64,000 nt of DNA. Source: Camelus ferus. Lineage: Eukaryota. Every line of letters starts with the position of its first letter. Within the stretch, counting starts at the first letter, position 1. Shown piece after piece: positions 6,060 through 55,141 of the stretch. Where the stretch lies: NCBI RefSeq assembly GCF_009834535.1, contig NC_045696.1, positions 56,918,001-56,982,000 on the forward strand, in the 5' to 3' direction. A program made the translations under genes and the position numbers. The notes beneath the pieces were generated by a model. It saw only the letters and a program-made list of their open reading frames with translations, was not told where the DNA came from and searched no databases.

Positions 6060-9000
6060 TTAGATTCCACATATGAGCGATCTCATATGGTATTTTTCTT
6101 TCTGGCTTACTTCACTTAGAATGACATTCTCCAGGAGCATCCATGTTGCTCCAAATGGCATTATGTTGTCGGTTTTTATGGCTGAGTAGTATTCCATTGT
6201 ATAAATATACCACATCTTCTTTATCCAGTCACCTGTTGATGGACATTTAGGCTGTTTCCATGTTTTGGCTATTGTAAATAGTGCTGCTATGAACATTGGG
6301 GTGCAGGTGTCATCCTGAAGTAGATTTCCTTCTGGATACAAGCCCAGGAGTGGGATTCCTGGGTCATATGGTAAGTCTATTCCTAGTCTTTTGAGGAATC
6401 TCCACACTGTTTTCCATAGTGGCTGCACCAAACTGCATTCCCACCAGCAGTGTAGGAGTGTTCCCCTTTCTCCACAGCCTCTCCAGCATTTGTCATTTGT
6501 GGCTTTTTGAATGACAGCCATTCTGACTGGTGTGAGGTGATACCTCATTGTAGTTTTGATTTGCATTTCTCTGATAATTAGTGACATTGGGCATTTTTTC
6601 ATGTGCTTTTTGATCATTTGTATGTCTTCCTTGGAGAACTGCTTGCTTAGGTCTTCTGCCCATTTTTGGATTGGGTTGTTTATTTTTTTCTTATTGAGTC
6701 ATATGAGCTGCTTATATATTCTGGAGATCAAGCCTTTGTCGGTTTCACTTGCAAAAATTTTCTCCCATTCCGTAGGTTTTCTTCTTGTTTTATTTCTGGT
6801 TTCCTTTGCTGTGCAGAAGCTTGTAAGTTTCATTAGGTCCCATTTGTTTATTCTTGCTTTTATTTCTTCTAGGAGAAAATTTTTTAAATGTATGTCAGAT
6901 AATGTTTTGCCTATGTTTTCCTCTAGGAGGTGTATTGTATCTTGTCTTATGTTTAAGTCTTTAATCCATTTTGAGTTGATTTTTGTATATGGTGTAAGGG
7001 AGTGTTCTAGCTTCATTGTTTTACATGCTGCTGTCCAGTTTTCCCAACACCATTTGCTGAAGAGACTGTCTTTATTCCAATGTATATTCTTGCCTCCTTT
7101 GTCAAAGATGAGTTGACCAAAAGTTTGTGGGTTCATTTCTGGGCTCTCTATTCTGTTCCATTGGTCTATATGTCTGTTTTGGTACCAATACCATGCTGTC
7201 TTGATGACTGTAGCTCTATAGTATTGTCTGAAGTCTGGGAGAGTTATTCCTCCAGCCTCTTTCTTTCTCTTCAGTAATGCTTTGGCAATTCTAGGTCTTT
7301 GATGGTTCCATATGAATTTTATTATGATTTTTTCTAGTTCTGTGAAATATGTCCTGGGTAATTGGATAGGGATTGCATTAAATCTGTAGATTGCCTTGGG
7401 CAGTGTGACCATTTTAACAATATTGATTCTTCCAATCCAAGAGCATGGAATATCTTTCCATTTTTTAAAATCTTCTTTAATTTCCTTCATCAATGGTTTA
7501 TAGTTTTCTGTGTATAATTCTTTCACCTCCTTGGTTAGGTTTATTCCCAGATATTTTATTACTTTGGGTGCTATTTTAAAGGGGATTGTTTCTTTACTTT
7601 CTTCTTCTGTTGATTTATCCTTAGTGTAAAGAAATGCAACTGATTTTTGAACGTTAATTTTGTAACCTGCTACCTTGCTGAATTCTTCAATCAGCTCTAG
7701 TAGCTTTTGTGTGGACCTTTGAGGGTTTTCTATATATAGTAACATGTCATCAGCAAATAATGACACTTTTACCTCTTCTTTTCCAATTTGGATCCCTTTT
7801 ATTTCTTTCTCTTGCCTGACTGCTGTGGCTAGGACTTCCAGGACTATGTTGAATAGGAGTGGTGATAGTGGGCATCCTTGTCTTGTCCCAGATTTTAGTG
7901 GGAAGCTTTTGAGTTTTTCACCGTTGAGTACTATGCTGGCTGTAGGTTTGTCATATATAGCTTTTATTATGTTGAGATATGTTCCCTCTATACCCACTTT
8001 GGGGAGAGTTTTTATCATAAATGGGTGTTGAATTTTATCAAATGCTTTTTCTGCATCGATTGAGATGATCATGTGATTTTTGTCCTTTCTCTTGTTGATG
8101 TGATGTATTACACTGATTGATTTGCGTATGTTGAACCAGCCTTGTGTCCCTGGGATGAACCCCACTTGGTCATGATGTATAATCTTTTTTATGTGTTGTT
8201 GGATTCTATTTGCTAAAATTTTGGTGAGGATTTTGGCGTCTATGTTCATCAGTGATATTGGCCTATAATTCTCTTTTTTTGTAGTGTCTTTGCCTGGTTT
8301 TGGTATCAGGTTGATGGTGGCTTCATAGAATGAGTTTGGGAGTATTCCCTCCTTTTCAATCGTCTGGAAGAGTTTGAGAAGGACTGGTATGAGTTCTTCT
8401 TTGTATGTTTGGTAGAATTCCCCGGTGAAGCCGTCCAGTCCTGGACTTTTATTTGTAGGGAGGTTTTTAATTGCTATTTCTATTTCCTTTCTAGTGATCG
8501 GATTGTTCAAGTGTTCAGATTCTTCTTGATTCAGTTTTGGTGGACAGTATGTTTCCAGAAACTTGTCCATCTCCTCTAGGTTATCCAGTTTGGTTCCATA
8601 CAGTTTTTCATAATATTCTCTTATGATATTCTGTATTTCTATTTTGTTTGTTGTAATTTCTCCATTTTCCTTTCTTATTTTGCTAATTTGTGCTCTCTCT
8701 TTTTTCTTCTTTGTGAGTTTGGCCAGAGGTTTGTCGATTTTATTTACTTTTTCAAAAAACCAGCTTTTGGTTTGGTTGATTTTTTCTATGGTCTTGTTAA
8801 TCTCTATTGTATTTAATTCCTCTCTGATCTTTATTATTTCCTTCCTTCTGCTGCTTTTTGGGGCATTTTGTTCTTCTTTTTCTAATTCATTCAGGTGGTG
8901 GGTTAAATTGTTTATTTGAGATTGTTCTTTTTTGAGGAAGGCCTGTATCGCTATAAACTTCCCTCTTAGCACTGCCTTTGCTGTGTCCCATAGGTTTTGA

Positions 9001-9848
9001 GTGGTTGTGCTTTCATTATCATTTGTCTCAAGGTATTTTTTAATTTCAGCTTTGATTTCCTCATTGATCCATTGTTTTTTCAATAACATCTTGTTTAATC
9101 TCCATGCTTTCCTTTTTTTCTCCTTTGTTTCTCTGTTGTTGATTTCCAGTTTCATGGCATTGTGGTCAGTAAAGATGCTTGAGATAATTTCTATCTTCTT
9201 AAAATTGTTGAGGTTTCTTTTGTGCCCAAGTACATGATCGATCCTGGAAAATGTTCCATGTGCACTTGAAAAGAATGTATATCCTATTTTTGGGGGGTGT
9301 AATGCTCTGAAAATATCCACAAAATCTAGTTTTTCTATTGTAGTATTTAATTTCTCTGTTGCCTTGTTTATTTTCTGTCTGGAAGATCTGTCTAGTGATG
9401 TTAATGCAGTGTTAAAATCTCCAACTATGATTGTATTCCCATCAATATCCCCCTTTATCTCTGTTAGTAATTCTTGTATGTACTTAGGTGCTCCTATATT
9501 GGGTGCATATATATTAACGAGTGTAATATCCTCATCTTGTATCACTCCTTTAATCATTAGAAAATGTCCTTCTTTACCTTTCTTTATGGCCTTTGTTTTA
9601 AAGTTTATTTTGTCTGAAATCAGTACTGCAACACCTGCTTTTTTGGCTTTTCCATTTGCATGGAATATCCTTTTCCATCCTTTCACTCTTAATCTATATG
9701 TGTCCTTCTCCCTAAAGTGGGTCTCTTGTATGCAGCCTATTGAAGGTTCTTGCTTTATTATCCAGTCTGCCACTCTGTGTCTTTTGACTGGAGCATTTAG
9801 TCCATTAACATTTACAGTAATTAATGATAGATGTGTGTTTATTGCCAT
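6060..9848 (-). pseudogene. L1 ORF2 (endonuclease/reverse transcriptase), 1262 codons, interrupted by a single in-frame TGA at 6699-6701
   Basis: APE motifs NVNGLN, IQETH, GDFN, TDH; PIP-box-like QTKSWFF; RT motifs QGCPLSP and LFADDM. ORF 6060-6617 is in the same frame and holds the CCHC motif [14 protein letters not shown]. Confidence 0.95.
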
Positions 9849-10252
9849 TTTGAACTTATCTTTGCAGTTGAATTGGTATATCCTCTTTGTTCCTTTCTTC
9901 TTCCTTTTGTGGTTTGGTAATTTTCCTTTGTATTATCGAGGATTTTATTTAATTTTTGTGACTCCTTTGTAAATTTTTGGCTTGTGGTTACCCTTTTTTG
10001 TAAATCTATCAACCCATTACTATAACTGTCTTTATTAAACTGATAGTAACATGATCTCAAACCCATCCTACTGTTAAAAAAATTTTAAAAAGAAAGAAAA
10101 AAATATTCTATATTTCCCTGCCTCCCTCTCCCACTCTCAGTGATTTGTATGTCTTCTTTTATAATTTCATGTTTACTTTATTTGTAATTCATGAGTTATC
10201 ACCTTTCCAGTTGTGTGTTTCTCATTTCTGTAGCATCCTGCTGCTTTTCTAT

Positions 10253-11155
10253 TTAGAATAGCCCTTTCAATATTTCTTTTAGCATGGGTTTAGTGTTGCT
10301 AAACTCCTGCAGCTTTTTTTTGTCTGTGAAACTCTTTATTTCTCCTTCTATCCTCAAGGATAGCCTTGCTGGGTAAAGGATCCTAGGCTGCATCTTTTTT
10401 TCATTCAGGGCTTTGAATATATCTTGCCACTCCCTTCTGGCCTGTAGTGTTTGTGTAGAGAAATCAGCTGAGAGCCTTATGGGGGTTCCCTTGTAACTTA
10501 CTCTTTGCTTTTCTCTTGCTGCCTTTAGAATCATTTCTTTATCCTTGACTCTGGCCATCTTGATTATGATATGTCTTGGTGTGGGTCTATTTGGGTTCTT
10601 CCTGTTTGGGACCCTCTGAGCTTCCTGTACTTGGATATCTGATTCCTTCTTTAAGTTTGGGAAGTTTTCAGTCATGATTTCTTCAAAAACCTTTTCAATC
10701 CCCTTTGATCTTTCTTCTCCTTCTGGGACCCCTATTATGCGAAGATTGGCACGCTTTATATTATCCCATAGGTCCCTTATGCTATTTTCATTATTTTTTA
10801 TTTGCTTCTCTTGTAGTTCTTCTGAATGGGTGCTTTCTATTGCCCTGTCTTCTAGATCACTAATTCGTTCCTCTGCATTATCTAGTCGGCTTTGCACAGC
10901 TATTAGATCATTCCTCATCTCTGTCAATGAGTTTACCCATTCTACTTGGCTCTTCTTTATAGCTTCAATTTCATTTTTGACATATTTTATATCTCTAAAC
11001 ACTATCTCTTTTAATTCCTTCAGCAATTCGATCACTCCTTTTTTGAAATCTTGATCTAGTAGGCTATCGGTGTCTATTTCATTGATCTTTCTTTCAGGGG
11101 ATTTCTCTTGTTCTTTTAATTGGGAAAGGTTTTTCTGCTTCTTCATCTTGCTCAT
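10253..11155 (-). CDS. L1 ORF1p (RNA-binding chaperone), 300 aa, open
   Basis: Coiled-coil N-half, NLRIIGVPE (RRM), PRHIIIK, REKQ, ARREW and YPARLS motifs typical of L1 ORF1p. Confidence 0.95.
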   Translation of the reverse strand: MSKMKKQKNLSQLKEQEKSPERKINEIDTDSLLDQDFKKGVIELLKELKEIVFRDIKYVKNEIEAIKKSQVEWVNSLTEMRNDLIAVQSRLDNAEERISDLEDRAIESTHSEELQEKQIKNNENSIRDLWDNIKRANLRIIGVPEGEERSKGIEKVFEEIMTENFPNLKKESDIQVQEAQRVPNRKNPNRPTPRHIIIKMARVKDKEMILKAAREKQRVSYKGTPIRLSADFSTQTLQARREWQDIFKALNEKKMQPRILYPARLSLRIEGEIKSFTDKKKLQEFSNTKPMLKEILKGLF

Positions 11156-11559
11156 ACCTCTTTGGCACTGTGGTTTATGGAGTATCAGTTGTTTATTTTG
11201 GTCCTTAAGGATTTTATCTATCTGATGCCTATTTAGGGATAGAACTTAGGAAAAAAGGAAAAAGAAATATGAGAGAGAGGGAAAGAATTTTAAAAGAAGG
11301 GAGAAAGAGGGTTTGAAAACAGTGTATAATGAATAATAGAAGAGTGAGTTGAAGCAGAGTATTAATCGGGTTGAGACGTCCTTTTGAAACCTTTACAAAA
11401 AAGAGGGGGGGGAATGAATAGATGTATTTTAAACCTGTGTCAAATCAATAGCAGGACATCAAAACCCAAGAGAAACAGAAATGAATTAAGAAGTAAAGAT
11501 TAAGAGAGTAATAGAAAATAGAACAGGTAAAAACAGATTTAAAAAAAAAAAGGGGTGGG

Positions 11560-26772: not shown

Positions 26773-26870
26773 ACAGTTCGGCATGGTTTTCCTTATCAGC
26801 CTACAGCATTAGCCTTTGATCCAGTTCAGAAAATCTTGGCTATTGGGACAAGAACAGGTGCTATACGAAT
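26773..26870 (+). CDS. STXBP5L: STXBP5L (tomosyn-2) internal coding exon, 98 nt (probably exon 3)
   Basis: Polypyrimidine tract + cag acceptor. Translates [32 protein letters not shown](I), recognised as the tomosyn-2 N-terminal WD40 region (paralog STXBP5 reads ...AVGTQTGALRL). Ends in phase 2 at the U12 donor GTATCCTT. Exon number inferred from the human gene. Confidence 0.96.
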
Positions 26871-27029
26871 GTATCCTTAATTTTTGGTTCATTATTTGCT
26901 ATATTATTACCAATTACATTTCCTTAAATATTCAGGTAAGTGAAGTATTTATGACCAAATAGTTTATTGTTTCTTTAGAAATGAATAACCCACATCAGCA
27001 AATTTACTGGCATATTTTTAATGCCTGTG

Positions 27030-47995: not shown

Positions 47996-49561
47996 TGAAA
48001 CATCTTTTTCTATTACCACACTTTCAATATGTGTCTTTAGCTCTGAAATGAGTGTCTTGTTTTGGACCCTCTGCTTCCTATACCTGATGTCTGTTTCCTT
48101 CTTCAGGCTTGAGAAATTTTCAGCTATAATTTCATTATACACATTTTCAACCCCTTCCTTTCTCTCTCCTCCTGCTTGGGCCCCTATAATGCAGATGTTA
48201 GTATACTTATGTTGACTCAGAGATCCCTTAAACTACTCTTATTTTTAAATTGTATTTTTTTTTTTTTTTTTTGCTGTTAAGACTAGGTGAATTCCATTGT
48301 TCTATCTTGCAGATTGCTTATGCTTTTTTTCTGTATCACCTAGTCAGCTATTAAATCCTTCTAATGTGTTTTTCATTTTAGTTACTGTGTTCTTTTTTCT
48401 GACTGGTTCTTTTTTATATTTTCTAGTTCCTTGTTGAAATTCTCACTGTGTTCATCTATTATTTTCCCAAGTTCAGTTAGAATTCTTATTACTAATGCTT
48501 TAAACTCTATCTGGCAAATTATTTATCTATTTCATTAGTGTCTTTCCTGTTTTTTTTTCTTGTTCTTTTGTTCAAAACATATTGCTCTGTCTTGTTATTT
48601 GCTTAACTTTTTTGTCCTTATGAAATTAAGTGAGACAGTTACCTATTTCAGTCTTGCAGGAGTGTCATGTATGGCAGTGTCCCTGTCCAGTCTTCACATG
48701 CCCAGTGGCTTTGGTGGGAGAGCTGACCTGAAGTAAGCACAGGCTACATCTCCTGTTGTAGTGTGCTGGCAGCTCCCACCTTGCTGGGAGGCAGGGGTGG
48801 AGGTGGAGGGGCTAAAACCAGAGCTAGGTGTGAGCCTGGGCTTCTCCTATGCTTAGTGACTATCACCACCCTATGGGGGTGGGTTTGGATCCCAAGGTGC
48901 TGGAGCAAAAGTCCTGAGTGTCAGTTGGAGCTGATTTTGTTTTTTCTAAGTGTGCGCTCTCCCCCTGGTGTTGGCATCTTTGCCTACTGAAGAGTAGCAT
49001 CAGAGGAAGAGGGGCTTGAGTGGGCCAGGAACAAGGTTTTTATGCCTATTACCTGATACATGGGTAAGCATGACTCCTTTGTGTCCCTTTGCATATGGTA
49101 TATGCTGGTGACAAACTCAAAGCCAAATGGGGCTGTGTCTCACGGGTACAAAGCTATTTCTGTTTTCATAGCCAAGGCCACAGTCAGTGAGTTAGCTGAC
49201 TAAGTACAATTCCGCCTCCTCAAAATGCTGCCTTCATTCTTGGACTGCACTGATTTTCAGATCTCCAGCCTGGATCCTGAAGCTCCTGTGAAAGCACCTC
49301 TGTCTATGCATTGATGTAAAGTTATTGTTGTTGGGTGGGGGGTTATGTGCAAGGGACATTTTATTCAGCCATTTTGTTGACGTCTAATGCTATATAATGT
49401 AATTTCCATCAATTAAGACTAAGATTTTTGAACTCTTTATTTACAAAAATAAAGATAATTAATAAGCCAAACATCAGTTGCTAAGTATGTTAGTTTTTTT
49501 CTTTACACATTAATATTGATGCTAATTTAAATGTTAGAATCCTTGACCTTTGTTATATTAG

Positions 49562-49644
49562 ACTTGGAAGACCTGGTGTTGATTGTTATTGTCAACATGA
49601 AAGTGGTGCAGCTGTTTTGCAGCTCCAAGTTTTTGATCAATGAG
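49562..49644 (+). CDS. STXBP5L: STXBP5L internal coding exon (probably exon 4), 83 nt as assembled, with an apparent +1 frameshift
   Basis: TCCTTGAC branch site, then tag acceptor. Completes the Ile codon and reads LGRPGVDCYCQHESGAAVLQLQ. The conserved FLINE follows only in the +1 frame. Ends at GAG|gtgagg. Confidence 0.95.
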
Positions 49645-50061
49645 GTGAGGATTTTCTTGGCTATTTATATCTCTCTCACACACACTCATATACAAACACA
49701 TACATTGTATAATTTTTTTTATATTATTATTCTAAATGCTTAAAGATGTATACATATTATTCATGGTCACGTTTTTCATAAAAGACTGTACTCCTGTATT
49801 TGTCAGCTTATTAAATTTTAAAGGAAAAACTTGTATGTATAAGAAGATCCTGTTATTGTGATTCTGTAGCATAATTTGATTAATAGTTTAAATGATTTTT
49901 TAAAAATTCCTAAAATCCTTTGATTGCTTCATTGACCATTAAACTTTTCCTCTATACACTCTCCTCCCACCAATTTGCTTTATAATCCAGCAATAATTTC
50001 ATGTTTTGTCTCAATCGTACATTAAATCTTTTCAGTTGTTTACTTATGGGCTCTTTTTGTC

Positions 50062-52349: not shown

Positions 52350-52434
52350 GCTATACTAAGATGTAGAAAGCATCCTATTATAAATGAAATAGCTATACTA
52401 AGAGGTAGAAAGCATCCTATTATAAATGAAATAG
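52350..52434. repeat. 42-bp tandem duplication (1 mismatch)
   Basis: gctatactaaga[t/g]gtagaaagcatcctattataaatgaaata x2. Confidence 0.92.
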
Positions 52435-53061: not shown

Positions 53062-53162
53062 GGTGCTTTGGTCAGTGCCGGCTCAGATGATACACTTCAT
53101 TTGTGGAACCTTAGACAAAAAAGACCAGCTATTCTTCATTCTCTTAAATTTAACCGAGAACG
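53062..53162 (+). CDS. STXBP5L: STXBP5L internal coding exon, 101 nt (probably exon 5)
   Basis: Strong pyrimidine tract + ccag acceptor. Translates GALVSAGSDDTLHLWNLRQKRPAILHSLKFNRE(R), with a WD-type LHLWN. Donor CG|gtaaga. Confidence 0.96.
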
Positions 53163-55141
53163 GTAAGAATGTATGAGTTAAACAATTACTTAATATGTAA
53201 GAAAATTATTTCCTGAGCAAGTTTCAGGTTAACTTTTGAAAGAATTTTTTTTTTCATAATTCTAATAGCTAGAAATAGTATTTGTGCTTGGTTTTATAAT
53301 CGTTTATTTTCATAGAAAGTTCATAATTGATACAGAATCAGTCATCTAATGGGGAACGCCTAACATTCTTGTTCTCCTTGCTGTAAATCAGGACTTCAGC
53401 AATGATGTGTTCTTTTCCTTAGGCTAGGGTGCTGAAAACCCAGACTTAAAATTTAAAAGTCAAGTAAATACTAAATGTATTTCTACACCTTTTGATCATG
53501 GCAGTTATTTCCTATACTTCTACCCTTTTGTTATTTTTTTACCTTGAAATATTTTTTTACCTTGAAAAAGTACTGAGACAAAAGTTTTAGACATACAGAA
53601 ATGTTGGTACTAACTGTTGAGCAACACTACATATCCAAGGTTAATGTTTTTAAAGATGGTAAATTGATCAGAATTCAAATTCTCCCACTTTATAATGATA
53701 TAATAATCAGAAAAAGAAAATTATATGAATGAATATGGAAAATTTTATTAGATTTTATTTGTAACAAGCTGTACCAAATTTTAGTGTTTCTAATGTTAGT
53801 TTCAACCAGACCTAGAATATAACAGACATCTACGTAACTGATAATCTACCTCGAGATGGAGTAAAATTTGTATTTTATTATCTCTGTTAATTATCTTAAT
53901 TATAAAATGATCTGATATTTGTTTATTATTTGGGAAATAGTCAAACTCTTTGCAGTGAATGAGATGGGCTTCACAGGAAAATTTGATGTTAATGAATGAA
54001 AAGAAACCCCTGAGAAGTAAATTTACACAGATTAGCAAGTACTATTCAAACTGAGGTAGGTGAATAATAGAGACAGGCAGTCACTGCTGAGAGCTCAAGA
54101 AAGTGCTCGTTTTATTTTAATTTTGTTGAATGGTAATAGTTCATAAGGAATCATCACTTTATGGGCAGAGCTTAATGAAGTAAACCAGTTTTTATAGTTT
54201 TGGTGAGAAAAAGGATAGCACCTATATGGACAGTCTTTCTTTTTCTACCTGAAGCTTTTTCTTTTTCTTCTTATATGCATACTATACTATTAAAATCATT
54301 AATCTTCAGTATTCTGAGTAGTATTCATGACTATCATGTCCACAGTATTTTGGGATTCAGCATCAATGGAAGTTTTTATTATATCCAGTATTTTTTGAGA
54401 GGAGGAAATTTATATTTTAGGTATTTACTAAAACCAGATAGGACTTCTTTCTTTAGATTAGATCTAATTTTGGTTATTTTATCTTAAATTTTAAAATAAG
54501 TAATTTAGCAGAAATTTCAGGATATTGAAAAACTTAAAGATCAGTCAAGAATTGTCATACTGTTCCTTATATCTTTACCACTAAAAATATTACTTACTCA
54601 GATATTACCATATTGATTTTATCTCTCTCTGCTTGCAAGATTTTTTTTGTTTGTCAATGTTTTGAGTAGATCCAGCCCTACACTTCTGTGTAGATGTACA
54701 GAATGAGTTTTTTCCCTTTCATAATTGGAATGTTGAAGGAAATATTCTGGCCTTTTTTATGGCCATTTTGGGGAGAAGAAATGATTGATGGTAATGATTT
54801 CCAATTATAATTTTATTATATCAATTGGGGTGGATTTAACTGGTAGCAACATAAAAGTGTAAGCTGACAGATTTCAGACAAATTTAAATCTTAGGAACTT
54901 TGCAGGAATTTCCTATTTTAATGCTTACAAAAATGTGATATTTATCTTTTTGAGAAAGATAAATTCATTATCTTAATTTGAGAATAATCATTAAATATCA
55001 CAATTTATTATGGAGGAGAAAATATCTTTAAATGTATGGTGAATGTGAGGCTTAAGTAAATAAAGAAGCAATAACCAAGCGTCTTTGGGAACTCTAAGCC
55101 CTGTTAAATCAGCCATTTAACTATATAAATTTCTACATACC

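Follow-up and report, generated by a model that had tools for sequence, protein, structure and literature searches.

The frameshift that interrupts STXBP5L in the assembled camel genome is most likely an assembly artefact and not a real feature of the gene or a gene loss. Coding exon 3 of this gene carries one base too many in the assembly, and the surplus lies at a synonymous A/G site in the third position of a glutamine codon that is variable among public sequence runs. We consider it very probable that a silent A/G variant, combined with a consensus error in which CAA and CAG were entered one after the other to give CAAG, accounts for the assembled text and that the real STXBP5L is intact. 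Positions are given on the window, that is, the whole stretch of 64,000 nucleotides that was analysed, in which three STXBP5L coding exons were found, all on the + strand. The relevant features are as follows.

26773..26870, + strand: STXBP5L coding exon 2, 98 nt, ending in phase 2, from exon placement (exon 3 in the mouse numbering of PMC10495110)
26871..49561, + strand: intron of 22.7 kb with U12-type-like ends, donor GTATCCTT at 26871 and AG at 49560-49561
49562..49644, + strand: STXBP5L coding exon 3, 83 nt in the assembly and 82 nt in 4/4 public runs compared
49627..49629, + strand: extra-base site, where the last letter of a Gln codon is a synonymous A/G; AAG as assembled, but AG in runs X1 and X6 and AA in runs X14 and X2
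49629..49630, + strand: weak GT, whose use would keep the frame only with CAAG as assembled
49641..49643, + strand: apparent premature TGA, which the extra base alone brings into frame
49645..49650, + strand: normal donor GTGAGG of coding exon 3
53062..53162, + strand: STXBP5L coding exon 4, 101 nt, with the phase-0 start GALVS

The exon at 49562-49644 is bordered directly by AG on its 5' side and by GTGAGG on its 3' side. Read in the frame set by the 98-nt exon at 26773-26870, it translates as LGRPGVDCYCQHESGAAVLQLQVFDQ and then meets the TGA at 49641-49643, where the assembled STXBP5L frame ends after 122 codons. The 83-nt exon, its stop and its single surplus base are thus present in the assembly exactly as the initial annotation had described them. 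That annotation had also held that removing one base would restore the frame and that the next exon requires a phase-0 junction. Both points were borne out, as either 82-nt form is free of stops over 1186 codons and coding exon 4 opens with GGT GCT TTG at 53062 in phase 0. Given that the 98-bp exon is described as exon 3 in mouse (PMC10495110), the exon at 49562-49644, the third coding exon, would be exon 4 of the gene. A run of five T residues adjoins the extra-base site.

Homologous sequences indicate what this exon should look like. In the paralogue STXBP5, located on contig C8, the corresponding exon is 82 nt long. Among 120 homologues examined, the spacing from GRPG to GALV was 27 residues in all of the 111 proteins that contain both motifs, and FL(I/V)NE immediately preceded GAL in 116; of the remaining four, two are short translations extending into intron sequence and two are proteins whose segment at this place differs. 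The locus is single-copy, with one match in the assembly (G000, 2.09 Gb in 2043 contigs), and the assembly therefore contains no second, intact copy. A single copy would also be compatible with collapsed haplotypes. Other exon structures were also considered. The sole unshifted junction found for coding exon 3 paired a GC donor with a far-upstream AG and lost conserved residues, while skipping of the exon did not restore the reading frame.

In order to examine the extra base in other samples, public runs were queried with the window segment 49200-50030 (831 bp), of which 87 words were sampled. The 14 best runs, originating from six studies and carrying two organism labels, each contained 0.97 of the 87 words, and a word share of 1.00 was reached by none of the 24 runs listed. 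With one base fewer at the site, 30-31 of 801 words are lost, which corresponds to 3.3-3.4 of 87 and to a predicted share of ∼0.96. This prediction, which holds for either 82-nt form, fits the 84 of 87 words observed. Four of the 14 best runs, one from each of four studies, were compared base by base, the other 10 being represented by word share alone. X1, X6, X14 and X2 each provided a single contig over the whole 831 bp with one gap, no other differing letters and 830 matching bases. The CAG form (49627 absent) was present in X1 (organism A) and X6 (organism B), and the CAA form (49629 absent) in X14 (organism A) and X2 (organism B), so that each allele occurs under both organism labels. The A/G site is the only variable position among the four contigs in 831 bp.

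The CAAG insertion was found in none of the four public runs compared (0/4), and we conclude that the extra base in STXBP5L coding exon 3 is very likely not real sequence. The four runs are contigs, with depths of 8, 80, 10 and 11, which lose rare variants and show presence rather than absence, and the source sample of the assembly may itself be among them. Runs X15-X20 (RNA or possible RNA, word shares of 0.12-0.56) and X21-X24 (0.00) lie outside this evidence. The initial annotation had taken CAA or CAG immediately followed by the T run as the mark of an assembly error and had proposed a comparison with other individuals. Both forms were indeed encountered in public contigs, and all four runs lacked one base. 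The real frameshift and early termination of its headline are unsupported; the base is absent from 4/4 runs.

The assembled CAAG corresponds exactly to allele 1 followed by allele 2. This agrees with the suggestion, already made in the initial annotation, that synonymous CAA and CAG alleles had been merged into one consensus; X1 and X6 supply the CAG form and X14 and X2 the CAA form. Under such a scheme, the source animal would be heterozygous A/G at the Gln codon and its two haplotypes would have been collapsed in the assembly. If the consensus was then built from long reads prone to indels, an AG template would need just one deletion to account for any read, whether it carried A or G. The product of the real transcript would be a tomosyn-2 of 1186 residues. 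A true insertion at that site and with that letter would amount to a coincidence of about 1 in 1000, because ∼3 of 831 places and 1 of 4 letters would give the same text.

Long-read assemblies have been described as acquiring indels at heterozygous sites where haplotypes were merged, an artefact for which phasing is given as the remedy (Korlach et al. 2017, PMC5632298). The present case resembles those described there in that an indel falls exactly at the allele difference, in what would be a collapsed consensus, and breaks the gene model. It differs in that the paper offers no example for an individual site ('data not shown') and no instance of both alleles in a row, whereas population contigs supply both alleles here; the comparison assumes that the source animal was heterozygous and that its haplotypes were collapsed. 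A literature search for the exact error form, both alleles in a row, found no paper on it.

The same 83-nt exon would arise in a homozygous animal if base calling or polishing had simply inserted a letter, for instance through an error of long reads at the AA dinucleotide or at the edge of the T run. Frameshift errors are numerous in long-read assemblies, with ∼1,000 genes needing frameshift correction in human assemblies based on CLR reads (Jarvis et al. 2022, PMC9668749), and the T5 run borders the site. As in the CLR and ONT assemblies described there, a single indel breaks an otherwise complete and conserved coding sequence. However, the counts reported come from human benchmark assemblies and do not separate errors at heterozygous sites from those at homopolymers. 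A plain insertion would also leave unexplained why the position falls on the sole variable site among four contigs in 831 bp and why the text spells both alleles in a row, and we regard it as unlikely.

The assembled text itself reads CAAG followed by an in-frame TGA, raising the question of whether a private or rare null allele lies on top of the common silent variant, which would make it a natural knockout allele of tomosyn-2 in a large mammal. A rare allele can be hidden in contigs, and tomosyn-2 deletion mice exist and have been studied, so loss is survivable in mice (PMC12139977). An engineered mouse Stxbp5l null was obtained by excising the 98-bp exon 3, causing an early frameshift common to all isoforms (PMC10495110). 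The assembled allele, if real, would mimic this null, except that its frameshift comes one exon later and occurs in none of the four runs. Translation would then end in the third of 27 coding exons, 122 codons from the start, and nonsense-mediated decay would probably eliminate the message. Such an allele would be of interest as a natural tomosyn-2 knockout because deletion of tomosyn-2 raises insulin secretion in mice (PMC12139977). Against this reading, the insertion was seen in 0/4 runs compared and no full word set appeared among the 24 runs listed, it would have to coincide with a silent variant, and no second lesion was found in 27 exons. In addition, severe disease has been linked to homozygosity for a missense STXBP5L variant in two siblings, who had seizures and developmental delay (PMC8792400). 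A genuine null allele is in our judgement very unlikely.

We also considered whether a real insertion might be rescued by the weak GT at 49629, which would yield a 67-nt exon in the correct phase and an in-frame protein lacking FLINE. The initial annotation was right that this GT exists and that it is a poor donor, with 5/9 matches to the donor consensus compared with 7/9 for the intact donor 16 nt downstream; its use as a cryptic donor that rescues the frame is unsupported. Rescue requires a real insertion, found in 0/4 runs, and would cost five conserved residues, FL(I/V)NE being present in 116/120 homologues. Moreover, the CAA form has no GT at the site, and in the CAG form use of the GT would be out of frame. 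This route is extremely improbable.

A merged consensus over the silent variant, which we favour, predicts an otherwise intact gene. Twenty-seven coding exons matching P0126 were placed on C1:56894788-57178275. As assembled, 25 of the 26 junctions fit the reference frame, the exception being the exit of coding exon 3, and GT-AG ends were found in 26/26 introns. With either 82-nt form, the coding sequence comprises 3561 nt, or 1186 codons plus stop, with no internal stops and the same residues at the site. No further frameshift, stop or splice defect was detected across the 27 coding exons; this lack of downstream lesions, which the initial annotation had suggested looking for, is consistent with an artefact. 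Identity of the STXBP5L frame to mammalian orthologues was 96.1-97.9% (7/7 compared), on a par with dolphin-mink (97.5%) and pika-mink (96.2%); for P0126 it was 97.5% over 1186 aligned residues. Judged from these alignments, STXBP5L appears to show no sign of decay, although a very recent null allele would still be compatible with an intact remainder.

Fixed loss of STXBP5L in this lineage has nothing in its favour except the assembly text. It is refuted by the intact 82-nt exon in 4/4 runs under both organism labels, and the full reading frame and orthologue-level identity also speak against it. That all of the runs might come from other species is an unlikely escape because 830/830 bases match. 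We give this reading practically no weight.

Several comparisons identify the gene as the STXBP5L (tomosyn-2) orthologue on sequence grounds, in agreement with the name given by the initial annotation. Protein matches, a search of the camel's own genome and orthologue identity all point to this name. When P0013 was searched against the genome, the exon matches fell into two series, one on C1 (76-98% identity) and the other on C8 (57-84%), the latter being the paralogue STXBP5. The C1 locus is thus nearer to STXBP5L proteins than is the paralogous C8 locus, as expected of an orthologue. Among the matches listed for coding exon 4, those with names were nearly all syntaxin-binding protein 5-like, with a few labelled syntaxin-binding protein 5 or hypothetical. 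P0126, the Lgl/tomosyn family protein that served as the reference, contains the Pfam domains LLGL (PF08366) and Lgl_C (PF08596), both above cut-offs. A PDB sequence search with coding exon 4 gave nothing but generic WD40 matches among the best 60 of 338. Tomosyn-2, a conserved protein, acts as a SNARE inhibitor in both synaptic and insulin secretion. Like mammalian STXBP5L/tomosyn-2 (P0126 and P0013), the camel gene has 27 coding exons, 1186 codons and a 98-nt exon as in mouse, and it differs solely in one extra base, in the assembly.

No own-species protein record was named among 120 listed of 2787 matches in the coding exon 4 search, nor was one present among 15 listed of 687 cluster members or among 70 matches (best identity 95%). 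Own-species records probably sit inside 90% clusters, making their absence uninformative either way. Judged by titles and abstract openings, no paper on the status of camel STXBP5L was found.

Biologically the frameshift is of no consequence, because STXBP5L is very likely intact. Its value is for quality control, where it serves as a clear example: any one-base frameshift in this assembly needs to be checked against reads before gene loss is called, and a frameshift whose text spells two alleles in a row is a recognisable artefact signature. Every animal whose variants are called against this reference would be assigned a spurious deletion here. Separately, a GRAMD1C exon (L046:470-575, C1 ∼51266970-51267075) has a visible frame change and is a candidate for the same class of error.

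The intron that precedes coding exon 3 has unusual ends. U12-type introns are characterised by a GTATCCTT donor and a TCCTTRAY branch point near the acceptor. The 22.7-kb intron at 26871-49561 combines this donor with a branch-point-like TCCTTGAC at 49540-49547, shortly before its acceptor. The same intron of the paralogue STXBP5 (C8 57950485-57974064, 23.6 kb) has the same donor octamer and TCCTTAAT before the acceptor. The intron may therefore be described as U12-type-like, in that its motifs match the consensus and are conserved in the paralogue. A literature search found no paper on a U12-type or minor intron in STXBP5L, but supplementary tables may well list it; it is probably a known, catalogued minor intron.

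Further observations concern the remainder of the gene. An L1-like element, which we take to be L1 from its translations, lies antisense in the first coding intron (window ∼6060-11250, minus strand). It has long open frames of 330 codons (11245-10256), 1077 codons (9932-6702) and, beyond a single in-frame stop, 212 codons (6698-6063); the element looks young. In the assembly, two-copy tandem duplications, both intronic, flank coding exon 4: one of 42 bp (97%) at 52350-52434 and one of 18 bp (100%) at 53532-53567. At C1:57124350-57124424 (L038), an 88% match to residues 733-757 of the dolphin isoform P0013, which are absent from P0126, marks a candidate alternative exon of STXBP5L. Finally, the assembled sequence at C1:57173024-57173191 (L010) matches P0013 over 56 residues with a single difference, Glu to Gly.
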